The notes beneath the pieces were generated by a model. It was not told the origin of the DNA, ran no database searches, and worked only from the letters and a program-made list of their open reading frames with translations. From assembly GCA_947494155.1 (NCBI GenBank), contig CANLTW010000016.1, positions 1 through 31,170 of the forward strand: a stretch of DNA of 31,170 bases, written 5' to 3'. Below, piece after piece: positions 4,696 to 27,996 of the stretch (its first letter is position 1; each line of letters starts with the position of its first letter). This stretch comes from Chlamydiota bacterium. GTDB taxonomy: Bacteria > Chlamydiota > Chlamydiia > Chlamydiales > RGXB01. The translations under genes and the position numbers were made by a program.

Positions 4696-7251
4696 ATGAA
4701 TGTATCGCAGATAAGAGAAAAATTTATTCACTATTTTGTCCAAAAAGGGCATATCCACGTCCCCTCATCCCCTGTGATTCCGCAAGACGATCCCACCCTT
4801 TTGTTTGCGAATGCCGGAATGAACCAGTTCAAAGATATTTTTTTAGGTAAAGAAAAACGGGATTATTCACGTGCCACTACCTCTCAAAAATGTATCCGCG
4901 CCGGAGGTAAACACAACGACCTTGATGATGTTGGTTACACATCCCGACATTTGACTTTTTTTGAGATGCTGGGAAATTTTTCCTTTGGCGATTACTTTAA
5001 AAAAGAGGCGATCCAATTTGCTTGGGAGGTCTCCACGGAGGTTTTCCAACTCGACCCCAAAAAAATCTACGTTTCGGTCTTTGAAACCGATGATGAGGCT
5101 TTTGAGCTTTGGAAAAGTCACATCCCCGAAAATCAAATTGTCCGATTTGGAGCTAAGCAAAATTTTTGGGCAATGGGCGACACGGGTCCCTGTGGCCCTT
5201 GCACCGAGCTTCTGTTTGATAGGGGCGAAAGATTTTCTTTTGCCAAAAACCCCTACGAAGATGAGTCTGGCGAGCGCTACTTGGAATTTTGGAATTGCGT
5301 ATTTATGCAGTTTGACAAAGGCCCTCATGGCCAAACCCCCCTCAAGCGCCCCTCAATAGATACCGGGATGGGGCTGGAGAGGATCGCAGCGCTTAAACAA
5401 GGGGTGGATAACGTTTTCGAAATCGACCTTTTCAAGAGCCTTATTCGTGATGCCGAAACCATACTGGGCAAAAGCTATGAACAGAATCGGGTGGCTTTCC
5501 ATGTGATAGCTGATCATATCCGCTCCCTATCTTTTGCGATCGGAGATGGAGCCATTCTAAGTAACGTCGATCGTGGATATGTTTTAAGAAAAATCTTACG
5601 CCGTGCGGTGCAGTTTGGTCGCCGTTTAGGAAAAGAGGAACCCTTTTTGTACAAAATGGTTTTGCCCTTAATTTCTCAAATGGGATCGACGTACACCGAA
5701 CTCAAGTCGCAGCAAGCTGTGATTGAAGAGATGATCCTTAATGAAGAAGAGGCCTTCTTAAGGACTCTGAAAAAAAGCGGCGGACTTTTACAAAAAGCTT
5801 TTGAAGAGGCTAAACCTAGAAATATTCTCGATGGGGAGGTGGCTTTCAAATTGAAAGATACCTACGGAATCCCTTTTGATGAACTTGCTTTGATGGCTAA
5901 AGACATGTCGATCCAAATTGATACTGCGGGCTATCTTAAAGAGGAAGAGCGGGCAAAAGAGATCTCCAGAAAGGGATTTGAGGTCAAAGAGCAAATCTCG
6001 ATGGAACCCCTACTCGAATTCGTCGAAAAACATGGCCCAGTTGAGTTTGTGGGTTTTGAAACCCTTTCAACAAAAGCTACCGTAATCGGGCTTTTGGTCA
6101 ATGGTCAGTTTGTGGACACCCTTCTTGAGGGGCAGAGTGGGGCATTGATTCTTAGTGAGACGCCCTTTTACGCCGAAAAAGGGGGGCAAATCGGGGACAC
6201 CGGAATAATCGGATCTTTTGTTGTAGAGGCGACAAAGACTCCTGTAAAAGGTCTTATTTTACACGAGGGTAAAGCGACAAAAACGATTGTGCTATCAGAC
6301 ATTCTTGAAGCCCGTGTCGATAGCTCGCTAAGGACCGAAATTGAAAAGCACCACACCGCAGCGCACATACTCCATTACGCTCTCCAGCAGGTAGCAGGCC
6401 CCGCAGTGCGTCAGCAGGGCTCTTTTGTCGGATCCAATCGGTTGCGATTCGATTTCAACTCTCAAAAACCGCTCAGTGAGTCCGAGGTCAAGGAGATCGA
6501 ACGGATCTGCAATCAAAAGATTAAAGAAAACCACCCTGTGATTGCCTATGAGTCCCCCTATGAAGAGGTGAAGAAAGAGCCGAAAATCAAACAATTTTTC
6601 CAAGACAAGTATGATCCGATTGTGCGTGTTGTCCAAATCGGAGATTTTTCGTATGAGCTTTGTGGTGGAACACATGTCAAAAACACAAAAGACATTCTCT
6701 TGTTAAAAGTGATCAAAGAATCTTCGATCGCATCGGGTGTGCGTCGGATCGAAGCTATTTGTTCTCAAGAGGCGATTGCACTACTACTACAAAAAGAGTC
6801 GACTCTTGAAAAAGCGAATCTTTTGCTAAAGTGCCCCCAGGATAAAACACTCGATACCCTAGAGTCTGTTCTGCTCCACTACAAAAAGATGCAAAAAGAG
6901 ATTGAGGAGCATAAAGAGGGGGAAAAAAGGAAAATTTTCCAAGACCTTCTCCATGCGCCAAAAGGGATGGTGATTCAGGAATTGACGCTCGATCTCAAAG
7001 ATCTTGTGGATATCGCCTGTCCGCTCGCTAAGGGGAGAAGCGAATCGGTATTTCTTTTTAACGAAAATCGCTTTGTGCTTGCTACTCCACCAAAATTAGA
7101 CGCAAAAAAACTTTTGGAGGAGCTTAAAGGTTCACTAACCATAAAAGGTGGAGGCACAAAAGAATTTGTCCAAGGAACTTTTGAGATCCCTTTAAAAGGG
7201 GAGGCTCAGCTAAAACATATACGAGGATTGCTTGAAGCCGTTTGCTGTTGA
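4696..7251 (+). CDS. alaS: Alanine--tRNA ligase
   Basis: DPTLLFANAGMNQFK, RHLTFFEMLGNFSFGDYFK, GPCGPC and IDTGMGLER motifs; editing domain HHTAAH...ELCGGTHV. ATG at 4696. Confidence 0.98.
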   Translation: MNVSQIREKFIHYFVQKGHIHVPSSPVIPQDDPTLLFANAGMNQFKDIFLGKEKRDYSRATTSQKCIRAGGKHNDLDDVGYTSRHLTFFEMLGNFSFGDYFKKEAIQFAWEVSTEVFQLDPKKIYVSVFETDDEAFELWKSHIPENQIVRFGAKQNFWAMGDTGPCGPCTELLFDRGERFSFAKNPYEDESGERYLEFWNCVFMQFDKGPHGQTPLKRPSIDTGMGLERIAALKQGVDNVFEIDLFKSLIRDAETILGKSYEQNRVAFHVIADHIRSLSFAIGDGAILSNVDRGYVLRKILRRAVQFGRRLGKEEPFLYKMVLPLISQMGSTYTELKSQQAVIEEMILNEEEAFLRTLKKSGGLLQKAFEEAKPRNILDGEVAFKLKDTYGIPFDELALMAKDMSIQIDTAGYLKEEERAKEISRKGFEVKEQISMEPLLEFVEKHGPVEFVGFETLSTKATVIGLLVNGQFVDTLLEGQSGALILSETPFYAEKGGQIGDTGIIGSFVVEATKTPVKGLILHEGKATKTIVLSDILEARVDSSLRTEIEKHHTAAHILHYALQQVAGPAVRQQGSFVGSNRLRFDFNSQKPLSESEVKEIERICNQKIKENHPVIAYESPYEEVKKEPKIKQFFQDKYDPIVRVVQIGDFSYELCGGTHVKNTKDILLLKVIKESSIASGVRRIEAICSQEAIALLLQKESTLEKANLLLKCPQDKTLDTLESVLLHYKKMQKEIEEHKEGEKRKIFQDLLHAPKGMVIQELTLDLKDLVDIACPLAKGRSESVFLFNENRFVLATPPKLDAKKLLEELKGSLTIKGGGTKEFVQGTFEIPLKGEAQLKHIRGLLEAVCC

Positions 7252-10200
7252 CGGGCTCACCTCCAGTACGAAAGCCCACTTCATCGAAGCGATCCAGAAA
7301 AAAGATCCCCTCCCCTACCTGATTATCAGTGAGGGGAATCCAGATCTATTTCACGATCTCACCTATTTTTTTCAAAAAGAGCCATTGGAGCTTGTCGCAA
7401 AAGAGGCAAACCTTGATGTGGAGGGTTTGCGCTACAAGGTAGTGAAGGCTTTTAAAGACGCTGTCGATTCTTTGCCTCTTATAGTCTCTATACAGACACT
7501 CTTTGATCCCCTCCCTAATCCAGAATCGCTGGCATTTTTTTCGCTTAAAGAGGGGCAATTGCTTCCGTTCGACCCTTTTTTATTTCAGCTTGAGACTTTT
7601 GGGTTAAACAGAAAAAAAATTGTGGTGGATAAAGGGGATTATGCGATTCGTGGGGGTCTTGTTGATCTTTTCCCGATAGATGCCATGGAGCCGATTCGGG
7701 TAGAATTTGATGGGGATAAAATCGCCTCTTTGCGCCATTTTGATCCTGTTTCACAGCGCTCAACGAAAGTGATCCAAGAGTTTCAATTTTTACCTACCTC
7801 CACAGAAGGATCTGTTACCCTTTTGGATCTTTTTCCCACCCCTTTTCGGATTTTTTTAGACCATCCGACACATCTTGAGGATCGGATGGTGCAGCTAAAA
7901 GTCGAATTAGCCCCCTTTTTAGAAAAGGCTAAAGAGGTCTATTTTCTCTTTGACGAAATGGTGGAATCTCTAATCGAGGATACCGAAATCGCCCCCGTCG
8001 GCCGTGATTTTTATCAAGGGAAACAGACCCCCCTAATTGATTTGGAGCTTTTTAAAAAAACATACCGACTACAGCACGATTTTTTATTTTACGAGCCTAT
8101 TGAGGCCCATTTGGATCTCAATAAAGTGGGACACCTGCTACACCAGCCCCCATTCGATAAAATGGCGGTACACCTTTTGGCGCAAACCCCGGTAGAGGAA
8201 AAATTTTTTGAAGAGCTTCTCCCCGATCGCTCCAAAAATTGTGTGATCCAAAAAGGATACCTCTCTCAGGGTTTCATCTATCGGCAAAAAGAGCTTTTTT
8301 TACCCCACACCGAATTTTCCAAAAGAAAAAAGATCCACCGTAAAAGATGGCGTGTCCATAACCATGTCCCTGTAAGCGAATTTCACGAATTAGAGCCGGG
8401 TGACCTTGTTGTCCACTATCACAATGGGGTGGGAAAATTTCTTGGTTTCGAGCAGATGAGTAACCATCAGAAAGTTCAGGATGATTTCATCGTTTTAGAA
8501 TACGCCAATTCCTCCAAGCTCTACGTTCCGATGTCCCAATCCCATCTAGTAAGCCGTTATATCGGAGCTAAAGAGGACCATCGTGTTACTTTAAACGCTT
8601 TAGGAACCAATACCTGGGCAAAAACAAAACTTAAAGTCGAAAAAGCGATTGTGGGTTACGCCCGTGAGCTCCTCCACCGTCAAGCGATGCGACAAATCAA
8701 AGGGGGATTTCAGTATCCTAGCGACTCGTTGGAAATGGAGCTTTTTGAGGACGCTTTTGCATTTGACGAAACTATCGATCAGATCAAAGCTATTCAAGAT
8801 ATCAAACAGGATATGTGCTCCACTGAGGGGATGGATCGGCTTATTTTAGGGGATGTAGGTTACGGTAAAACAGAAATTGCTATGCGTGCGGCGGCCAAGG
8901 CTGTTTTAGATGGGCAAAAACAGGTCGCCGTCCTCGTCCCCACAACCGTTTTAGCCGTCCAGCATTTCGAAAATTTTAAATTGCGTATGGAGGGATTTCC
9001 GATCCGCATCGAGCTTGTATGCCGCTTTCGTTCCACAAAAGAGATCAAAAACACGCTCCAAGAGGTGAATGAAGGGAAGATCGATATTTTGATAGGTACG
9101 CACCGTATAATCTCCAAAGATGTTCTTTTTAAAGATCTGGGGCTGATTATTGTTGACGAAGAGCAACGTTTTGGAGTGCGGGCAAAAGAATGGCTTAAGC
9201 AAGCTACGATTGGTGTGGATTGTTTAACCTTATCGGCAACACCTATCCCCAGAACCTTGCACCTTTCTTTAGTAAACGCGCGTAAAATGTCTGTGATCTC
9301 TTCCCCCCCGTCCGATCGTCTCCCGGTTAAAGTTGCTGTTGTGGAGGAGAGCGATTCGGTGATTCAGGATGGCCTTATAAACGAATTTCAAAGGGGTGGT
9401 CAAGCCTACTTCCTTTATAACAGAGTTGAGACCATTCACGAAATGAAAGATAAGCTTCAAAAGCTAGTCCCAAAAGCGCGGATAGGGGTTGTCCATGGAC
9501 AAATGGATCCAGATGATATTGATGAGATTTTTCATGGCTTTAAAAAGGGGGCTTTGGATCTATTGCTAGCCACGACAATCATCGAAAACGGGATCGATAT
9601 TCCTAACGCAAACACTATATTCATACATCGTGCAGATACCTTCGGCATCTCTGACCTTTACCAGCTTAAAGGGCGAGTAGGGCGTAGCGATAAATCGGCT
9701 TATGCCTATTTCCTTATCCCGAAAGGGGCGACGATGAAAGAAACCTCAACCCAAAGAATCAAAGCGATTGTGGATGCCTCCGGGTACGGAGGAGGATTGA
9801 AAGTAGCGATGCGCGATTTGGAAATCCGTGGAGCAGGAGATATTCTTGGGGTACAGCAATCGGGGCATGTGGCATCGATAGGTTTTCACCTTTATTGCAA
9901 ACTGCTCAAGCGCACAATAGACCTGATGCGTGCCAATAAACAGACGAACTTCACTGAGACAAAGGTGGAAATTCCCTTTGAGGCAAAACTCCCCCCTTTC
10001 TATGTGGATGACAAAGGGCTAAGGATGGAGATCTACCACCGCTTTGGCGAGTGTGTGGAGACCCAAGAGGTGCATGAGCTCTATAAAGAGATTCTTGACC
10101 GTTTTGGTCCGGCTCCAATAGAGGTCAAGTGGCTCTTTGTGGTCGCTTTAATCCGCACCGAGTGCGCTAAATATGGGGTGCAGCTTGTCAAACTCAAAAA

Positions 10201-10315
10201 CTGTACTTTAGTGATGGAAACAGAAAAAAAATCGCTAAGCTTTCTTTCCCCTGTTTTCAAAACCCCTAAAGAATTTCATGAGTTTGTGCTGCAAAAGCTC
10301 TCTTTATTCAGTTAG
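7232..10315 (+). CDS. mfd: Transcription-repair coupling factor
   Basis: UvrB-like RGGLVDLFP, RID GDLVVHYHNGVGKF, Walker A GDVGYGKT, DEEQRFG, SATPIPRT, QLKGRVGR, DLEIRGAG and a TRCF C-terminal domain. Overlaps alaS by 20 nt. Confidence 0.97.
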   Translation: MKPFAVDGLTSSTKAHFIEAIQKKDPLPYLIISEGNPDLFHDLTYFFQKEPLELVAKEANLDVEGLRYKVVKAFKDAVDSLPLIVSIQTLFDPLPNPESLAFFSLKEGQLLPFDPFLFQLETFGLNRKKIVVDKGDYAIRGGLVDLFPIDAMEPIRVEFDGDKIASLRHFDPVSQRSTKVIQEFQFLPTSTEGSVTLLDLFPTPFRIFLDHPTHLEDRMVQLKVELAPFLEKAKEVYFLFDEMVESLIEDTEIAPVGRDFYQGKQTPLIDLELFKKTYRLQHDFLFYEPIEAHLDLNKVGHLLHQPPFDKMAVHLLAQTPVEEKFFEELLPDRSKNCVIQKGYLSQGFIYRQKELFLPHTEFSKRKKIHRKRWRVHNHVPVSEFHELEPGDLVVHYHNGVGKFLGFEQMSNHQKVQDDFIVLEYANSSKLYVPMSQSHLVSRYIGAKEDHRVTLNALGTNTWAKTKLKVEKAIVGYARELLHRQAMRQIKGGFQYPSDSLEMELFEDAFAFDETIDQIKAIQDIKQDMCSTEGMDRLILGDVGYGKTEIAMRAAAKAVLDGQKQVAVLVPTTVLAVQHFENFKLRMEGFPIRIELVCRFRSTKEIKNTLQEVNEGKIDILIGTHRIISKDVLFKDLGLIIVDEEQRFGVRAKEWLKQATIGVDCLTLSATPIPRTLHLSLVNARKMSVISSPPSDRLPVKVAVVEESDSVIQDGLINEFQRGGQAYFLYNRVETIHEMKDKLQKLVPKARIGVVHGQMDPDDIDEIFHGFKKGALDLLLATTIIENGIDIPNANTIFIHRADTFGISDLYQLKGRVGRSDKSAYAYFLIPKGATMKETSTQRIKAIVDASGYGGGLKVAMRDLEIRGAGDILGVQQSGHVASIGFHLYCKLLKRTIDLMRANKQTNFTETKVEIPFEAKLPPFYVDDKGLRMEIYHRFGECVETQEVHELYKEILDRFGPAPIEVKWLFVVALIRTECAKYGVQLVKLKNCTLVMETEKKSLSFLSPVFKTPKEFHEFVLQKLSLFS

Positions 10316-10338: not shown

Positions 10339-11214
10339 ATGGTAAAAATTGGCTCTTATTTTGCATTGCCCCCCTACCCAGGTTATGCCTTTTCTGTGCC
10401 CGTGGCCTTCACCTTAATCTCCAAAATTGTGTATTCCCTTATAGCTCATCTCACAAAACTTTTGATAAACGCATTAAGTTCATTTTCAGGCTCGATCCCT
10501 TTTATCCGGAAAGCCACCCTAAAAAAAGCGGGGCATCTCCCTTTTGCTCCCCTCTTTTACCAGACCTCTTTTTTCAGACACGAGGAGCTCTCATTAACTG
10601 TTTACGACGTTTCTGGAAATGGAAACTGTTTTTTTTACTCTCTACATCTTTGTCTACAGGCGATGGATCACCCAAGTAAGAATCTTACCCCTGAAAACCT
10701 AAGAGAGGCCATGACCGATTATATTTTTAATCACCTGGGTAGTGATCCCGATATTGAACAAAATTTGCGCCTGGAATTATCGGAAATTGCAGATCAAAAA
10801 AGGGGGGAGCTGCAAACTCGGTTGCTCTCTTTAAAAGAACTAAGACAACAGGCCTTCGAAAGATCTAAAGATAGGATGTTGCCCCAAGGGATAGAGTTCT
10901 GGAGCGATGTCAGCGCCAGCTGTTTTTGCCCCAATACAAAAGACCCAGAACTAGTCGAAATGATCCGTCGTCAAACCCAAGAACTCACCTACGAGATCAG
11001 CAAACCGGGCTACTGGGTAGGTCATGTAGCCTTGGATATCATGGCAAAAATTCTGCAAATTCGTATACGCGTCCATAATCCTGCCCCCCTTTTGCCTGTG
11101 GTTTGCGAACTGGGAAACCCCTCTCATCCCCAGGTCGATCTTTTGCGAGCACCAAATCATTACCTTGCAATTATTTACGATAAAAAACGCAATTTAATCA
11201 AAAAAATGATATAA
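10339..11214 (+). CDS. OTU-family cysteine protease, putative deubiquitinase effector (OTU-1)
   Basis: Cys loop DVSGNGNCFFYSL (C97), variable-loop helix YWVGHVALDIMAKILQIRIRVH, His loop NHY (H274); hydrophobic/amphipathic N-terminus. Confidence 0.85.
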   Translation: MVKIGSYFALPPYPGYAFSVPVAFTLISKIVYSLIAHLTKLLINALSSFSGSIPFIRKATLKKAGHLPFAPLFYQTSFFRHEELSLTVYDVSGNGNCFFYSLHLCLQAMDHPSKNLTPENLREAMTDYIFNHLGSDPDIEQNLRLELSEIADQKRGELQTRLLSLKELRQQAFERSKDRMLPQGIEFWSDVSASCFCPNTKDPELVEMIRRQTQELTYEISKPGYWVGHVALDIMAKILQIRIRVHNPAPLLPVVCELGNPSHPQVDLLRAPNHYLAIIYDKKRNLIKKMI

Positions 11215-11236
11215 TAAATCTATATTATTTAAGGAG
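11207..11236 (+). promoter_or_regulatory. Putative extended -10 promoter (TGATATAAT) and RBS (AAGGAG) for OTU-2
   Basis: TGnTATAAT at 11207-11215 overlaps the OTU-1 stop; AAGGAG at 11231-11236 precedes the ATG at 11242. Confidence 0.5.
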
Positions 11237-11241
11237 TTATT

Positions 11242-12267
11242 ATGTTTAAAACTGCAGCATTATGTCTTGTTGGTTGGGGAGCTTACGCTCTGTTTTCTAA
11301 TAAAAACGGATCGACTGAAGCGAAAAACAGCTCCAGCATTTTCTCCTTATTTCGATCTTTTTTCTCAGTAGCCCCTAAACCGGCCATGCCCCTAAATCCT
11401 CCCCCAATAGGTAAAGCTCTAGAAACAAACTCACCCGTTTCTACAATCGCTTCCAAAGTTCTAACCCCCCCAGCAATACCCGCTGCGAACAACCCTCATT
11501 CCCCTAAGCCAGAAGAACCCGCATCGCCTCTGCTTCAAAACCCAAAACCCTTAAGCACCGTCGCCAGTACATCGCCTGAAAAACCAAAATCCTCTTTAAG
11601 CACCGTCGCCAGTGCATCGCCTGAAAAACCAAAATTTAAACAAACAATAATGGAGCGTGACGGAAATTGCTTTTTTCATTGTCTTGAACACCATTCTCAT
11701 ATCCCACATACAGATTTAAGAGGTTATGTACCTACATTTCTCGATGCGAATCGTACCCTCCCCGAACAAATCGCCCAAAAAATAAGAGTAGAACTAGCTG
11801 ACATAACTGCAGGGCTAGTCGAGAAAATTGAGGATTATATTTTGGTGATTCCCTGCTTGCCTCCGGGTCAAGCGATTGACCCTGAAAAGGTATTTTCGCA
11901 TGTGCCCGAATTCCAACATTTTATTCAGCTCCTTAATTTTAAGAAACAAACAAAAGAAACGGTCAAAGAATACCTCACTCGGTTGAATGAGGCTTTGAAC
12001 TGCTATGCAACAAAGCACGATCCGTTAAGCCTAGACGAGTTAAATTTATTTAAAACTCTTGTATCCGGTGATAAATTTCATGTGGGCCAGGGGGTAACAG
12101 AAATCTTGGCATGTATATTAGGGGTGGGAATCAATGTGTACGGATGGGATCAAGTTACGCTGAGTTATGTTACTCACTCTCAAGCTTGCTCCAATAGTAG
12201 AGGTGAACAAACTATTCACCTTCAAAGAGACGGCAATCACTTTAATTACCTGGAGCTTATGAAATAG
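11242..12267 (+). CDS. OTU-family cysteine protease, putative deubiquitinase effector (OTU-2), with N-terminal hydrophobic anchor and Pro/Ser-rich linker
   Basis: ERDGNCFFHCL (C143), FHVGQGVTEILACILGVGINVY and GNHFN (H333, N335). Confidence 0.85.
   Translation: MFKTAALCLVGWGAYALFSNKNGSTEAKNSSSIFSLFRSFFSVAPKPAMPLNPPPIGKALETNSPVSTIASKVLTPPAIPAANNPHSPKPEEPASPLLQNPKPLSTVASTSPEKPKSSLSTVASASPEKPKFKQTIMERDGNCFFHCLEHHSHIPHTDLRGYVPTFLDANRTLPEQIAQKIRVELADITAGLVEKIEDYILVIPCLPPGQAIDPEKVFSHVPEFQHFIQLLNFKKQTKETVKEYLTRLNEALNCYATKHDPLSLDELNLFKTLVSGDKFHVGQGVTEILACILGVGINVYGWDQVTLSYVTHSQACSNSRGEQTIHLQRDGNHFNYLELMK
11551..11635 (+). repeat. In-frame 45-bp-period tandem duplication in OTU-2 (LSTVAS[T/A]SPEKPK, two copies)
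   Basis: ttaagcaccgtcgccagt(a/g)catcgcctgaaaaaccaaaat at 11551-11590 and 11596-11635, one mismatch. Confidence 0.95.
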
Positions 12268-12330
12268 AAGCTCTAACATCCTTTGCGTGAATAGGTTCTA
12301 TCTTATTCATAATTAGGGGGTTTGCACTAT

Positions 12331-12359
12331 TTGTAATTTAATTTATTATATGTTACAAT
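12331..12359 (+). promoter_or_regulatory. Putative sigma66/70 promoter for OTU-3
   Basis: TTGTAA-N17-TACAAT, with a TG extension at 12351-12352, in an AT-rich intergenic region. Confidence 0.5.
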
Positions 12360-12381
12360 TAGAGAGAATATTTGGGGGAAT

Positions 12382-13086
12382 ATGATACCAGCAGACATTT
12401 CAAGGGAAGGGCTTAATTCCCCCCTAGAGTCTTTAAACGGGCCAGAGGCTTTGGATAAAGCCAGTTTAAAATTTATTAGCGATAATATCCAGCAACTAAC
12501 CGGCGAGCAAACAGTTGCCGGCTACTTAAAGACTGAGGAAAAATATTTTGGTAAACGCTCAGTAAAGTCCGGCCCGGTAAAGAGAACCCCGATAAACGCC
12601 CCTATTCGCTTGATCGCAAAAGACGGGAACTGTCTATTGAATGCTGTTCGGGAGGGGCTTGAGCTTAGGGTCAGCCATCAATCCCTTAGGGAAGAGGTTA
12701 TTCGACATATCGATACAAAAGCGCTCCCTTTTAAAATGGAGCTTTACGAATATTTTGATGCTTGTAGTCAAAACAACCCCCTTTTTAGGGAGTATTCGAA
12801 AGAGGCTCTTTTGGAGGCTTTGCTTAGCAACATCTCCACCGCAAGCGGAAGTAAAGAAATAATTTCCTACGCCACGACGACTTACCTCGAAAGCATAAAA
12901 AAGGACAAATCTTTTTTAGGCGGTTCAGCCCTTGAGGTTTTGCATCGCCGCTACCAGGTGAATTTGGATATAAGGGACAAAGACTTCCAAAAAATTGAGC
13001 AGTTTTACCATCCAAATTTTCGTAAAAACCTAACGTTACGCCTCAAGAATCAGCATTACGATATATTTGAGAGTAGTAAAGGCTAA
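12382..13086 (+). CDS. OTU-family cysteine protease, putative deubiquitinase effector (OTU-3)
   Basis: IAKDGNCLLNAV (C84), SHQSLREEV, FLGGSALEVLHRRYQVNLDI and QHYD (H225, D227), giving a full Cys-His-Asp triad. Confidence 0.87.
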   Translation: MIPADISREGLNSPLESLNGPEALDKASLKFISDNIQQLTGEQTVAGYLKTEEKYFGKRSVKSGPVKRTPINAPIRLIAKDGNCLLNAVREGLELRVSHQSLREEVIRHIDTKALPFKMELYEYFDACSQNNPLFREYSKEALLEALLSNISTASGSKEIISYATTTYLESIKKDKSFLGGSALEVLHRRYQVNLDIRDKDFQKIEQFYHPNFRKNLTLRLKNQHYDIFESSKG

Positions 13087-13943
13087 CTTCTCTTTTTCTT
13101 TGTTTTTTCCCTTTCATCAAGAAGTTGCCTTGCTTTAAGCAAAATTTCCTCTCCCAAGCTGATGTGAAGTGGCATCTTTTCTTTATAGAGCGCTTTCACC
13201 GAATCGTTAGATTTAGCTCTTAGAAGGGGTAGATCAGAGATAAGCAAAAGAGCTCCAATAGATAGCTTTCTATAGTATCCGCCAATAAAAATTGTTGCAC
13301 ACTCCATTTCAATCGCCTGGGACCTTGAGGTGATCAATCTCTTTTTAAATTCGGGATCAAACTCCCAAAAACGGATATTGGTGGTATGGGTGATTCCGAT
13401 ATGGTGCATCAGATGGTGGGTATCAAGGACTTGAGATATGGCGCTTGATACTGTAAAATTTGCCATGGCGGGGACGTCGGGGGAAAAATAGTGGTGGGAG
13501 GTCCCCTCTCCTCGAATCGCTGCGATGGGCATAAAAAACTCCCCCACCTTGTATTTTCGCCTCAGCCCCCCGCAAAGCCCAAGCATCAAAGCCGCTTCAA
13601 CCTTGATATAAGATAAAAGATCCACCACAAGCGCCGCAGCGGGTGATCCTATTTTGAAGTCGCAAATTGTGATCTCGTTTTTTGGGTCATGTGCCACTTT
13701 GAACATACTCCCCTCAAAAACCTCTAATCCATGCTTTTCGGCAAAATGTTGTACGTAGATGGGGAAGTTTGTCAAAAGAACCAGCGGTTGAAATAGAGAC
13801 GGGCTGCAGCCCGCATAGCGCTCCAAGGTTTGTAGAGCATATTCTTTTTCATTCAACGGCTCCTCTTCTAAAAAATGATGCTCGGTATCGTCGCTTGCTT
13901 CAACATGGGCTCTGAGCCTGCTGATATCTTCCTGATCGTCCAT
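13083..13943 (-). CDS. amn: AMP nucleosidase (short PNP/UDP-family form)
   Basis: TLERYAG, LLTNF, FKIGSPAAAL, LGLCGGLR, AAIRGEGTS, TTNIRFWEFD, IEMECAT and LLLISDLPL motifs. Confidence 0.92.
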   Translation of the reverse strand: MDDQEDISRLRAHVEASDDTEHHFLEEEPLNEKEYALQTLERYAGCSPSLFQPLVLLTNFPIYVQHFAEKHGLEVFEGSMFKVAHDPKNEITICDFKIGSPAAALVVDLLSYIKVEAALMLGLCGGLRRKYKVGEFFMPIAAIRGEGTSHHYFSPDVPAMANFTVSSAISQVLDTHHLMHHIGITHTTNIRFWEFDPEFKKRLITSRSQAIEMECATIFIGGYYRKLSIGALLLISDLPLLRAKSNDSVKALYKEKMPLHISLGEEILLKARQLLDEREKTKKKRS

Positions 13944-14195: not shown

Positions 14196-15119
14196 ATGAG
14201 CGTAACACCCCCTATTTCGATCTCCGTTTTTGCCAAGGCGGGATGGAATTTTTTTAATCATGTGACCCCAAAGCCCACATCCGCGACCCGCATGGTAGCG
14301 ATTGGGATGATAGTGAGTGCCGTTGCGCTAGTTTTAATAGCGAAGATTTCACTATTTACAGGCCTCGCCGTGACGCTCGGTGCCTGCGCACTGGTCAATC
14401 ACGCAGACCTAAAGGCCAGCGCCGAAGCTCAAAAAGAGCTTGAAGCCAAGCTCCGCACCGGTAGCCGCGACCTCGAAGAAATACTCCAAAATATTAAACA
14501 TGAAACCCAAATCACAAGATTTCAAAAAGGGGAATTCATAGAACAGTCCTCGAACCTGGGATTAGTCATTGCACAAATAAAACAGCATTCGGATGCTTTG
14601 GATAGTTCGATTGAAACGCTTAAAACAACCTCTTCAAATTTTGATTCTAAACTTAATAAACACGAAAGCAATTTCAAACTTCTAGACAAAACAATTGAAG
14701 ACAGTCAGAAAAAAATATCTGCAATTCAGATAAGCAACGAAAAGTTTGAAGAAAACACGAAATCTTTTCAAGAAAACATCGATGTTTTAAAGAAAGAATT
14801 ATTAACTTTAGAGTCGATAAAAATTCAAATCAAGGAAGTTTACACGAAAATACATGAACTGCAGGATGAAAGTCGCAATAGCGTTGAAACCATGAGCTCA
14901 ATAACTAGAGAAACTGCCTCCCGATTAGAAGCTGTAGCTTCTACTTTGGAACAAAATTTTCCTTTGTTTAGTCGAATTGAAACCATGGATAAGAGGTTGA
15001 GCGAATGCTGGGAGCTAACGCAGAGAATTCGTCAGGAGCAGCAGGCTCCACGAGTGGCTCCGGCGCAGCAGTTCCAGCAGGTCGTTAGGACAGCTGCCGG
15101 GATGCAATACCGCCGCTGA
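14196..15119 (+). CDS. IncA-like inclusion membrane protein candidate (bilobed hydrophobic domain plus long coiled coil)
   Basis: Hydrophobic hairpin at about aa 33-68 broken by KIS, followed by about 200 aa of heptad-rich sequence; Ser/Pro-rich N-terminus without a Sec signal. Confidence 0.7.
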   Translation: MSVTPPISISVFAKAGWNFFNHVTPKPTSATRMVAIGMIVSAVALVLIAKISLFTGLAVTLGACALVNHADLKASAEAQKELEAKLRTGSRDLEEILQNIKHETQITRFQKGEFIEQSSNLGLVIAQIKQHSDALDSSIETLKTTSSNFDSKLNKHESNFKLLDKTIEDSQKKISAIQISNEKFEENTKSFQENIDVLKKELLTLESIKIQIKEVYTKIHELQDESRNSVETMSSITRETASRLEAVASTLEQNFPLFSRIETMDKRLSECWELTQRIRQEQQAPRVAPAQQFQQVVRTAAGMQYRR

Positions 15120-24448: not shown

Positions 24449-24985
24449 ATGATCGGAAACTTATTGTTTTTTTCTTTTCTTGTAGCTAGCGATCCAAAAA
24501 CGGTCGATAGCTTGAATTACCCGATGAAAGAGGGTGTCTACCAATTGCAATCTCAAACTGTAGCGACCTCACGTTATCCAAACGGGATGACCGAGACAGG
24601 CACAAGAAAAGTTATAAATGAGGATTTAGGGCAAAAATGGGTTACAAATACCACATTAGCCTATACCGATAGTAACAATCAGTCGTATAGAAAAGCTGTA
24701 ACCTATGAAACCATCTTTTTCAAAGACTTTAATGGTGAGGAAAAATTCTTCAAGATTGGCTCCCAAGGAAGTTATGGCCTTGGAACAGTAACAATCCAAA
24801 AGGATGGTAGTTTCGTTCAGGAAACCGAAGCGATGTCCAATAGTGTTGGAAAAATGGTTAAATCAAAAGTTGTAGTTACCCCAACAAAAAAAGGGTACGA
24901 CTCGGTGCAGACGTACTACGATGAAGCAGTTAAAAAGTGGGTTCCTTTGCGCACCACCACCTACATTTATATGCCCAAATCTTAA
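24449..24985 (+). CDS. Exported beta-rich hypothetical protein, paralog 1
   Basis: Short signal-like N-terminus and a good RBS (aggag); gapless similarity to the next ORF. Confidence 0.8.
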   Translation: MIGNLLFFSFLVASDPKTVDSLNYPMKEGVYQLQSQTVATSRYPNGMTETGTRKVINEDLGQKWVTNTTLAYTDSNNQSYRKAVTYETIFFKDFNGEEKFFKIGSQGSYGLGTVTIQKDGSFVQETEAMSNSVGKMVKSKVVVTPTKKGYDSVQTYYDEAVKKWVPLRTTTYIYMPKS

Positions 24986-25148: not shown

Positions 25149-25691
25149 ATGATTGGATTTTTTTTATTCTTTTCTTTACTTGTAGCTAAAGATGCAAAGA
25201 CCGTAGATAGTACCCCTTACCCTATGAAGGAGGGGATCTACCAGTTACAATCTCAGACAATTGGAACCCCCCGTTACCCTAATGGTAAGACCGAAACAGG
25301 AACCAGAAAAGTGCGCAATGAGGTTATGGGACAAAAATGGGTTACCGATACGGTTTTAACCTATACCGACAGCAACAATCAGCCCTTCCAAAAAGCTATG
25401 TCTTACGAAACTACATTTTTCAAAGACTTTAACGGCCAGCAAAGAGTTTTTGAGATCGGATCTCAGGGGGGCTATATGATCGGAACTCTTACCATGGAAA
25501 AAGATGGAGGATATACTATTGAAGCCGAGGGTATGTCGAATGCTTTAGGAAAAATGGTTAAAACTCGGGTGGTAGCTAATCCCACAAAAAAAGGGTACAG
25601 CAATGTGCAGACTTATTATGATGAGACAACAAAAAAGTGGGTTCCATTACGCACTAGCACCTTCACCCTTACATCTCAATCCTCAAATTAG
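25149..25691 (+). CDS. Exported beta-rich hypothetical protein, paralog 2
   Basis: Shares YPMKEG.YQLQSQT, TETGTRKV, FFKDFNG and KKWVPLRT with paralog 1. Confidence 0.8.
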   Translation: MIGFFLFFSLLVAKDAKTVDSTPYPMKEGIYQLQSQTIGTPRYPNGKTETGTRKVRNEVMGQKWVTDTVLTYTDSNNQPFQKAMSYETTFFKDFNGQQRVFEIGSQGGYMIGTLTMEKDGGYTIEAEGMSNALGKMVKTRVVANPTKKGYSNVQTYYDETTKKWVPLRTSTFTLTSQSSN

Positions 25692-27264: not shown

Positions 27265-27339
27265 GATGCACAACTTATAATAAATTATTTTACAATAAAG
27301 TAACCTAAAGTGTATACTATCCCCTTTGTGGAGGAAATT

Positions 27340-27996
27340 ATGCACCCTGTACCAAATCCTAATCAACTATCAGGCAATGAGTTAGACACTCAAAATCCCT
27401 CATTTTTGGCTAAAGGGGCAAATTTGGCCAAAAAAGTGGGCACCGTGGCCCTCAAAAGTCTTGCAGCATTAACTATTACAGCCAGTTGTATGGTGGGTTA
27501 TGGTGCCGTAGGGGCTCTTTGTGGAGCTATCGCCCTACCCGCATTTGTTGTTGTGGGTGCTGTTGTTTTATTGGTTGCAGGCATCATCTTTACTGTGGGT
27601 GCAATTCTTGATGACCCATCAGGGCTTAAAATTCCAAAAAATCACCCCGTTCCAGATCCTACAGCGAAACCCAAACTTTGGGTAGCTACAAAAGCTTTCC
27701 TTTGGAAAACGACAAAATTTGGAGCCTACATAGGTGGAGTTTTAGGTGCATTAGTTGGGCTAAAAGTGGGAGTCGAGCTCTCGTGGAATATGTTTGTTAA
27801 AAATAAACACATCACTGACATAAGCAACAAAAGTTCTATTGTAAAAGGTCTTGCATATATTGGATTTGGAGCAGGGGCACTCTTAATGGGACCCGCTGTG
27901 GCAGCTGGTGGATCTTTTAAGATACACTCCCCGGGTGTGGGTGAATTCAATAACGGTATTATCCCCAGCGTCTCAACTAATTTTAAGAAAAATTAA
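27340..27996 (+). CDS. Gly/Ala/Val-rich membrane protein, Inc-like effector candidate
   Basis: ATG at 27340 after GAGGA; continuous hydrophobic stretch of about 55 aa plus further GxxxG-rich segments. Confidence 0.65.
   Translation: MHPVPNPNQLSGNELDTQNPSFLAKGANLAKKVGTVALKSLAALTITASCMVGYGAVGALCGAIALPAFVVVGAVVLLVAGIIFTVGAILDDPSGLKIPKNHPVPDPTAKPKLWVATKAFLWKTTKFGAYIGGVLGALVGLKVGVELSWNMFVKNKHITDISNKSSIVKGLAYIGFGAGALLMGPAVAAGGSFKIHSPGVGEFNNGIIPSVSTNFKKN

Follow-up and report, generated by a model that had tools for sequence, protein, structure and literature searches.

What use would an uncultured freshwater chlamydia have for three adjacent genes whose products look like deubiquitinases (DUBs), in a genome in which no ubiquitin of its own is recognised? 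The question is raised by contig CANLTW010000016.1 of assembly GCA_947494155.1, from a Chlamydiota bacterium; positions 1 to 31,170 of the contig were analysed and are referred to here as the window (contig C16 of the source genome G000, which comprises 1.41 Mb in 24 contigs and is 97.6% complete). On the forward strand, between positions 10339 and 13086, a preliminary description had placed three consecutive open reading frames (ORFs), here OTU-1, OTU-2 and OTU-3, and had read them as a tandem array of candidate effectors of the OTU family; the three ORFs are present at these positions, and a script check located every proposed Cys-loop and His-loop motif at the residues assigned to it. From the analyses reported here we conclude that the three products belong to the OTU family, and we consider it probable that they are exported, host-directed OTU deubiquitinases.

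The three proteins are members of the OTU family

That OTU-1 (10339-11214, 291 aa), OTU-2 (11242-12267, 341 aa) and OTU-3 (12382-13086, 234 aa), all encoded on the + strand, are OTU-fold cysteine proteases of the papain-like CA clan with intact Cys and His residues is well supported. OTU-1 matches the Pfam model OTU (PF02338) with 30.3 bits (cut-off 23.3, E 6.9e-7). When single sequences were compared with the PDB using phmmer nothing significant was obtained for any of the three proteins (best E 0.37-0.43); the profiles of family alignments that include their orthologs (A3 for OTU-1, with 8 sequences, A1 for OTU-2, with 7, and A2 for OTU-3, with 9) had OTU proteins as their best matches in the PDB, namely a tick-virus OTU for A1 (8.1e-7), yeast Otu1 for A2 (2e-7) and a nairovirus-type OTU for A3 (1.7e-4); A2 also matched OTUD2 and OTUD3, and A3 viral OTUs and OTUD3. 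In these profile alignments the Cys loops, which have the form D/N-G-N/D-C, fall on loops of the GDGNCFF or DNSCLF type, and the His loops on the catalytic H-F/Y-x of solved OTUs. The middle motif of each protein, which had been proposed to be the helix of a variable loop, aligns with those of the other two (hhalign) and with the W/Y-G-G...E-I/L of solved OTUs.

The OTU fold postulated from the motifs was borne out by the structural comparison of the AlphaFold2 (AF2) models of OTU-2 and OTU-3. The top Foldseek matches of both models were all OTU DUBs, including the bacterial enzymes wMelOTU, Ceg23 and SnOTU, and for each model the best 50 entries of the VIA comparison were all OTU structures, the highest values being Z 13.9 for OTU-2 (rmsd 2.3 A over 126 aligned residues of 6dx2, with OTUD3 at Z 13.8) and Z 12.9 for OTU-3 (rmsd 2.9 A over 125 aligned residues of OTUD3, 4bou, with OTUD1 at Z 12.3). 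The model of OTU-2 has a pLDDT of about 90 at residues 128-341 and below 50 at residues 1-127; that of OTU-3 has a mean pLDDT of 80.2, and most 10-residue blocks of residues 71-230 exceed 90. In both models a helix begins at the Cys (H143-152 in OTU-2, H84-92 in OTU-3) and the His lies in the last strand (E333-339 and E225-229, respectively). For OTU-1 the same fold is predicted from its Pfam match, its profile matches and hhalign; in an Atlas feature search, taken as a lead only, 23 of its 30 matches were in OTU-annotated clusters, with scores of about 0.91. The Otubain subfamily (PF10275, Peptidase C65) was considered and rejected: OTU-2 matches this model below the cut-off (14.1 bits against 24.3, E 0.033), and in the Cys loop alone, neither of the other two proteins matches it, and otubains trail the viral OTUs and OTUDs in the VIA comparison (Z 9-10).

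In no family member that was aligned (8 for OTU-1, 7 for OTU-2 and 9 for OTU-3) does the catalytic Cys or His vary, down to identities of 21-39%. The third position of the triad is L or M in the OTU-1 group, N in the OTU-2 group and D in the OTU-3 group, hence the difference between the three paralogs noted in the preliminary description is real and is conserved within each group of orthologs. The order typical of OTU proteins, C...H-aromatic-D/N/E, is given in passages of PMC7396840, and the three proteins conform to it as C...H-aromatic-x. According to the same passages, mutation of the third residue results in a complete, an intermediate or no loss of activity, and part of PMC10643670 mentions viral OTUs that do not have it. 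Because this residue is dispensable or absent in SnOTU and in some viral OTUs, it is not decisive for membership in the family.

A common origin of the three proteins is supported by hhalign and by the tree described below. The OTU-1 and OTU-2 families align over 180 columns (98.1%, E 9.8e-14) and the OTU-2 and OTU-3 families over 156 columns (97.9%, E 4.3e-13); the alignment of the OTU-1 and OTU-3 families is weaker (72.9%) and covers 71 C-terminal columns. Further OTU copies were not found in the source genome, where the A1 profile retrieved OTU-2 alone and the Pfam OTU model retrieved OTU-1 and OTU-3 alone. No NCBIfam model matched any of the three proteins, and a close homolog from a metagenome-assembled genome named 'Chlamydiae bacterium' is annotated at NCBI as a hypothetical protein. 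For OTU-2, only 4 relatives were found among 1.84 billion representative sequences.

Active sites and amino-terminal regions of the paralogs

In OTU-1 the motifs are GNGNC97F, WVGHVALDIM and NH274YL, and the Cys-to-His spacing is 177 residues. The codon of Cys97 (10627-10629, +) lies in the loop that aligns with the GDGNCFF loop of viral OTUs and OTUD3, and that of His274 (11158-11160, +) in the segment apNHyl, which aligns with THFM of 7y5m and AHFD of 6dx5. These two residues, invariant in the eight sequences of the family down to 39% identity, would form a dyad, and the third position reads H-Y-L or H-F-M throughout the group and is never acidic or an amide; H-F-M is also present in 7y5m, a chain from a tick-virus OTU to which OTU-1 aligns. 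In the OTU-1 proteins of G000 and of its congener G005, the Cys loop reads GNGNC, with N replacing D three residues ahead of the Cys.

The N-termini of the three proteins differ, as had been proposed; the amphipathic helix assigned to that of OTU-1 is not the whole description, since residues 17-35 (10387-10443, +) are hydrophobic to the degree expected of a transmembrane (TM) segment. Their Kyte-Doolittle 19-residue mean is 1.74, and in OTU-1 and four orthologs the values (1.62-2.03) are at or above the classical TM threshold of 1.6; it is the 15 residues that follow this segment that are amphipathic. From hydropathy, the segment may act as a membrane anchor and the protein looks single-pass. 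A bilobed domain of the Inc type would span about 40-60 residues, versus the one 19-residue peak seen here by hydropathy alone.

OTU-2 carries the motifs RDGNC143F, HVGQGVTEIL and NH333FN. The codon of Cys143 occupies positions 11668-11670 (+), where pkDGNCfFHcla aligns with PGDGDCFFHCLA of 7y5m, and that of His333 positions 12238-12240 (+), where gnHfNyL aligns with GTHFMCL and GAHFDAL of viral OTUs; Cys143, His333 and Asn335 are invariant in the seven sequences of the family. The Cys and the His are 190 residues apart, and extra helices fill the insert in the model. Residues 1-19 (11242-11298, +) resemble a signal or an anchor, with a Kyte-Doolittle value of 1.28; in the orthologs of the congeners G006 and G005 the values are 1.25-1.53, under the threshold of 1.6. 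The hydrophobic segment is followed by a disordered linker of about 110 residues that is rich in proline (19%) and serine (18%), within which lies a 45-bp tandem repeat encoding 15 residues (11537-11635, +; 2.3 copies, Tandem Repeats Finder score 159, 91% matches). One 15-residue unit of this repeat is missing from P0005, a relative that is 89% identical to OTU-2.

OTU-3 has the complete triad Cys84/His225/Asp227, with the motifs KDGNC84L, FLGGSALEVL and QH225YD. The Cys84 codon (12631-12633, +) aligns with DNSCLFHA of Otu1 and DGNCLF of OTUD3, and the codons of His225, Tyr226 and Asp227 (13054-13062, +) with HYD of Otu1, OTUD2 and OTUD3; residues D81, G82, C84, H225, Y226 and D227 are invariant in the nine sequences of the family. 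This protein has no hydrophobic segment. Its polar residues 1-18 are modelled as disordered, which as a T3S (type III secretion) signal would be unspecific. Residues 21-58 (12442-12555) form two helices outside the catalytic domain, with seven invariant positions (S28, L29, I32, T40, G41, Y48 and E52) shared by nine orthologs whose identity is otherwise no more than 30-55%; this region may bind a chaperone, target the protein or provide an additional ubiquitin-binding site. In the OTU-3-like proteins of the congeners G003 and G001 (loci L022 and L023), a hydrophobic segment that is absent from the others, LFSLFEKLAALITYILGKI, is inserted just before the Cys loop (Kyte-Doolittle 1.3-1.6), and in this sub-lineage the otherwise soluble paralog may be membrane-associated.

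Resemblance to characterised OTU enzymes

The best structural and profile matches are OTUs of nairovirus type, human OTUD1, OTUD3 and OTUD5, and yeast Otu1 and Otu2, with which the three proteins share the standard order of motifs. In contrast with these viral and eukaryotic proteins, OTU-1 and OTU-2 have a longer spacing between the Cys and the His, no polymerase or UBX/UIM context is present, the N-terminal anchors and the linker are specific to the genus, and the identity in the structural alignments is 12-22%.

Among bacterial enzymes, SnOTU of Simkania negevensis (PDB 8cmr) resembles OTU-1 in three respects: it has an H-x-L active site, it belongs to a chlamydia-like bacterium and it has a predicted TM region. 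The portion of PMC10643670 devoted to this enzyme describes its site, Cys82/His234/Leu236, as active and as specific for M1 chains; by analogy, a Leu at the third position would be compatible with activity of OTU-1. According to the same portion, SnOTU is otubain-like, its TM region is C-terminal to the domain, and it is the sole OTU of its genome, so the plural 'Simkania OTUs' used earlier has to be corrected; here, in contrast, there are three paralogs and the hydrophobic segments are N-terminal. SnOTU was recovered in both structural searches with OTU-3 (Foldseek E 1.4e-3; VIA Z 8.8, rmsd 3.0 A, 105 aligned), but viral OTUs and OTUD1/OTUD3, and not SnOTU, match best in structure.

The Legionella Lot DUBs (LotA, LotB/Ceg23 and LotC) are described in parts of PMC7690952 and PMC10643670 as several OTU paralogs that are delivered as effectors, and the likeness to the present trio is the occurrence of several OTU-type paralogs in one intracellular bacterium. 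Ceg23, an A20-type enzyme with an acidic residue before the Cys (PMC7396840, in part), can be superposed on OTU-3 with Z 8.8 (rmsd 4.3 A, 152 aligned). The Lot proteins differ in that they are Dot/Icm substrates, are not top matches here and are absent from the best 50 VIA entries of OTU-2. A bacterial OTU DUB with the typical sequence topology is also known from an intracellular symbiont, Wolbachia pipientis (wMelOTU, 6w9o/6w9r; passages of PMC7396840). It aligns with OTU-2 (Z 12.9, rmsd 3.2 A, 133 aligned) and with OTU-3 (Z 10.9, rmsd 3.2 A, 130 aligned), but it comes from another phylum, has another domain context and is 16-19% identical in the structural alignments.

Any kinship to ChlaOTU, a much larger protein, would hold at the family level only, because no relative of the three proteins was found outside the genus in 34 genomes (E <= 0.001). 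According to part of PMC7396840, ubiquitin signals are reported to be removed by ChlaOTU of Chlamydia pneumoniae (CPn_0483) once infection has taken place.

Evidence for a host-directed function and its alternatives

In the source genome no match to a ubiquitin-family Pfam model was found. The T3S apparatus, which was judged from two components only, is represented by SctV/FHIPEP (726 bits) and by a gatekeeper of the HrpJ/CopN type (36.5 bits, cut-off 25). None of the three proteins matched a PADLOC family at E <= 0.01. Since parts of a T3S apparatus are present, and neither a ubiquitin match nor a model of a defence system was found, secreted host-directed deubiquitinases are the best reading of the trio, and the host-directed role suggested for them in the preliminary description fits this genome. 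They are also the only DUBs found in it by searches that covered three classes (OTU, CE-clan C48 and USP): Peptidase_C48 of the CE clan gave no match, and neither did UCH/USP; the USP search was likewise silent in every control genome, so that its blank is uninformative.

As host-directed deubiquitinases, the OTU proteins would be exported into or onto a compartment of a eukaryotic host that faces the cytoplasm, and there each Cys/His site would release ubiquitin, or a closely similar ubiquitin-like modifier, from proteins of the host or of the vacuole surface, which would blunt ubiquitin-dependent defence. OTU-1, with its Cys-His dyad and a Leu as third residue, would be held in a membrane by its N-terminal hydrophobic helix; OTU-2 would be tethered through its weaker hydrophobic segment, and the long, disordered, repeat-bearing Pro/Ser spacer would carry the Cys/His/Asn domain; OTU-3 would be a soluble protein with a full Cys/His/Asp triad behind its conserved two-helix region. 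The genes would have arisen by duplication within the junction between mfd and amn in this genus, where they would have evolved fast, with signs of allele exchange. It is tempting, but rather doubtful, to go further and to regard the trio as the sub-functionalised, minimal DUB toolkit of a 1.4-Mb chlamydia. In such a toolkit OTU-1 would be a membrane-anchored dyad enzyme that lost its third residue like the linear-chain-specific SnOTU, possibly with substrate-dependent catalysis, OTU-2 would be tethered on a repeat spacer of variable length and swapped as divergent alleles, and OTU-3 would be soluble and have the full triad.

Several points weigh against the trio being exported, host-directed deubiquitinases. 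As single sequences, OTU-3 is below the Pfam OTU cut-off (20.9 bits against 23.3, E 5.3e-4) and OTU-2 has no match to PF02338, and therefore one of the three proteins, OTU-1, reaches the gathering score, which is a threshold of the database and not a property of the fold. The juxtaposition of Cys and His is seen indirectly, by alignment to the catalytic residues of solved OTUs. FHIPEP alone does not tell an injectisome from flagella, and the N-terminus of OTU-2 could equally be a Sec signal that would leave the protein in the periplasm. Four runs of metatranscriptomic libraries contain contigs of 157-212 nt, all but one of them 95-99% identical, that cover parts of OTU-2, the end of OTU-2 with the following spacer, and OTU-3; none of the four runs gave a contig for OTU-1, and two of them (X17 and X18) have identical contigs and are apparent duplicates. 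These contigs are at most a weak hint of expression, given that DNA carry-over is possible, and neither expression nor silence follows from them. Overall, we infer export, membrane topology, ubiquitin as the substrate, a division of labour and deubiquitinase activity itself.

That one or more of the proteins are active OTU proteases with a substrate other than ubiquitin, such as host NEDD8, SUMO, an Atg8-type modifier or another host protein, is improbable in our view. It is true that the specificity for modifiers differs among OTU enzymes, and that viral OTUs, the best structural matches of OTU-2, also cleave ISG15, as indicated by entry titles (for example those of 5jze and 6oar). However, the bacterial OTUs confirmed in PMC7396840 are, in the passages that list them, ubiquitin-specific with one exception, and in the part of PMC10643670 that deals with its specificity SnOTU was unreactive towards probes for SUMO, NEDD8 and ISG15. 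We give still less weight to the idea that one or more members, above all OTU-1, are pseudo-enzymes, that is, decoys or scaffolds that bind ubiquitin and have retained the fold but no useful catalysis. The lack of an acidic or amide third residue in the OTU-1 group and the N for D in the GNGNC motif of G000 and G005 could be read in this way; nonetheless Cys97 and His274 are invariant in the eight sequences of this group down to 39% identity, the ratio of non-synonymous to synonymous substitutions (dN/dS) of OTU-1 is 0.27, and passages of PMC10643670 describe SnOTU as active with Leu at that position and some viral OTUs as devoid of the residue. Moreover, H-F-M occurs in the viral chain 7y5m.

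An action inside the bacterium or its envelope seems to us very unlikely; in this case the proteins would be proteases of a ubiquitin-like conjugation or anti-phage system or, for OTU-2, a periplasmic protease reached through Sec. Bacterial ubiquitin-like defence systems with proteases of their own exist, and the hydrophobic start of OTU-2 is signal-like. In contrast, OTU-1 and OTU-3 do not have such a start, the PADLOC models (E <= 0.01) and the search for ubiquitin-family proteins in the source genome were negative, and the neighbouring genes are only mfd, alaS, amn and efp, without genes for E1, E2 or ubiquitin-like proteins.

Position, distribution and history of the locus

The array lies between two housekeeping genes. 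Upstream, mfd (7232-10315, +; Pfam TRCF, CarD_TRCF_RID, UvrB_inter, DEAD and Helicase_C), which encodes the transcription-repair coupling factor, ends 23 bp before the start of OTU-1; downstream, the AMP nucleosidase gene amn (13083-13943, −; NCBIfam NF005500, 306.8 bits with a cut-off of 264; Pfam PNP_UDP_1) is convergent with OTU-3 and overlaps it by 4 bp. Farther out, the Pfam and NCBIfam matches identify transketolase and alaS genes before mfd, and efp and an EpmA-like gene after amn. The term 'island', applied to the array in the preliminary description, is an overstatement: no tRNA was found in the window, and there is no compositional anomaly over the OTU genes, whose G+C content (0.415-0.434) lies within the range of the window (0.329-0.461).

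A search for the same cluster in related genomes, as had been recommended, found OTU genes at the junction between mfd and amn in five of six congeners, in two or three copies; the sixth (G004, 72% complete) gave no OTU match. Three-gene arrays are present in G000, G005 and G006, and two-gene arrays in G001, G002 and G003. G001 and G003 have an OTU-1-like and an OTU-3-like gene, separated by a spacer of 214 bp that is too small for a third gene, and G002 has two genes, of which the first ('a') resembles OTU-1 and OTU-2 alike. Across the five congeners mfd is 79-96% identical and adjoins the OTU genes every time, and amn is 83-97% identical; taken together the flanks are 79-96% identical, versus 23-96% for the OTU proteins, a contrast that, like the mosaic profile of G000 and G006 described below, would fit the evolution of effectors. 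In the rest of the order, 34 genomes representing as many other families were searched with each protein as query (E <= 0.001), and none contained a relative. In other families, for which 27 loci were inspected with flanks of 1.5 kb only, 7 of these loci have 81-777 bp between the end of the mfd alignment and the 3' end of amn, and efp stands beside amn in 19 of the 27; here the gap between mfd and amn is 2767 bp, and therefore the OTU genes look inserted into an old housekeeping junction. The locus, whole or in part, is also present in freshwater and lake metagenomes (20 entries from 18 studies, one of which may be the source). A contig of 2.2 kb (L038, G064:C163:1-2213) carries an amn gene 94% identical to that of the window, an OTU-3-like gene (51%) and an Inc-like gene (53%); it was binned with a genome that belongs to another family (completeness 86%, contamination 4%) and is probably a mis-binned piece from a member of the source genus.

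The OTU family as such is common in the order, given that the Pfam OTU model (E <= 0.001) matches in 71 of 200 genomes, 62 of them over the cut-off, and in 52 of 127 genera (one genome was not scored). Adjacent OTU genes, defined as at least two matches within about 5 kb, occur outside the genus in five genomes (G015, G093, G012, G078 and G100); the pair of G093 is sister in the tree (93/90) and is an independent tandem duplication. Three Pfam OTU matches within about 5 kb were observed at each of G015:C1:121819-126609 and G100:C148:316-5717, and in G100 two of the matches lie in one frame of 761 aa, so that it may encode a double-OTU protein.

A maximum-likelihood tree was built from 28 catalytic domains, of which the genus lineage contributed 23 and other families the remaining 5; the OTU-2 of G006, which contains a gap, was excluded. 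OTU-1 with the 'a' genes (97/97), OTU-2 (95/94) and OTU-3 with the second ('b') genes (95/94) form clades, OTU-1 and OTU-2 are sisters with moderate support (80/73), the 'a' gene of G002 falls outside both (83/69), and the set of the genus is weakly split from the outgroups (63/79). The ancient duplication proposed previously therefore applies to the a/b split, which is older than the sampled genus, and not to that between OTU-1 and OTU-2, which, with only moderate support, took place inside the genus lineage. A tentative order of events is that an a+b pair was ancestral, that 'a' was duplicated after G002 diverged, and that OTU-2 was lost in G001 and G003; it is tentative because the branches are long and may have been joined for this reason.

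Selection was estimated for G000 versus G006, since dS was saturated in all other comparisons. The OTU-2 gene of G006 appears split in the assembly; a frameshift was considered and discarded, the cause being a run of N, and its C-terminal piece alone was used. The flanks gave dN/dS values of 0.05-0.07 (dS 0.29-0.50), OTU-1 of 0.27 (its dS, 0.073, being oddly low), OTU-3 of 0.29, and the C-terminal 159 codons of OTU-2 of 0.61 (dN 0.358). The OTU genes thus evolve 4-10 times faster than their flanks, under purifying selection, and, all the values being below 1, they are maintained. Along a 150-nt sliding window, the identity between G000 and G006 is near 0.91 in the flanks, mostly 0.96-0.99 in OTU-1, 0.65-0.81 in OTU-2 and 0.87-0.93 in OTU-3. 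The stretch 10501-11250 of the window is, in its OTU-1 nucleotides, 96-99% identical to the G006 locus (L020), versus about 91% in the housekeeping flanks, which suggests that this segment was recently exchanged between the two lineages; the mosaic profile as a whole may reflect recombination or allele exchange at the locus.

Transcriptional organisation

Promoters of their own had been postulated for OTU-2 and OTU-3. Between OTU-1 and OTU-2 there are only 27 bp, in which an AAGGAG ribosome site but no promoter-like match was found; the first of these proposals is not supported. OTU-3 is preceded by an AT-rich spacer of 114 bp (12268-12381, +) that is 0.95 identical to that of G006 and contains two overlapping sigma-70-like sites (12321-12349 and 12331-12359), each with 9/12 matches. 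The sites are thus there, but the number of such sites in the region is not above chance (12 found versus 7.8 +/- 3.4 expected).

Other features of the window

Between amn and efp, which in other families are usually near neighbours, lies an ORF of 307 aa (14196-15119, +) in which a long coiled coil comes after a hydrophobic block of 40 residues (28-67), a putative Inc-like architecture. Relatives were found in G005 (42% identity) and, as a partial copy, on the G064:C163 contig; weak matches to JetC/LmuB-type models of PADLOC, and to NCBIfam, were discarded as coiled-coil noise. Farther downstream, two ORFs without a Pfam family (24449-24985 and 25149-25691, both +; 178 and 180 aa) are tandem paralogs whose signal-like N-termini, MIGNLLFFSFLVA... 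and MIGFFLFFSLLVA..., are nearly identical, and another ORF without a Pfam family (27310-27996, +, 228 aa) has a long hydrophobic block at residues 56-104 and is possibly another Inc-like membrane protein. In the last 3 kb of the window the G+C content falls to 0.33-0.36.

Conclusions

Bacterial OTU DUBs are an established class of effectors, with ChlaOTU, the Lot proteins, SnOTU and wMelOTU as examples, and therefore this locus adds members to the class and not a new principle; the trio represents new, genus-restricted members of a known family that is locally common. Its value is comparative, given that versions of the array with two and with three genes occupy one fixed chromosomal site in one genus, and the same series offers a dated loss of the third residue in one paralog, a linker whose repeats vary in length, and mosaic identity between close relatives. 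It is thus a natural series for the study of how the specificity, the anchoring and the triad requirements of OTU enzymes diversify. If the three proteins were indeed a sub-functionalised toolkit, the locus would be a natural experiment in which linkage or location specificity evolves under an arms race with a protist host. Beyond this genus, the presence of Pfam OTU matches in 71 of 200 genomes, several with adjacent copies, suggests that environmental chlamydiae hold a large and mostly uncharacterised reservoir of OTU proteins.

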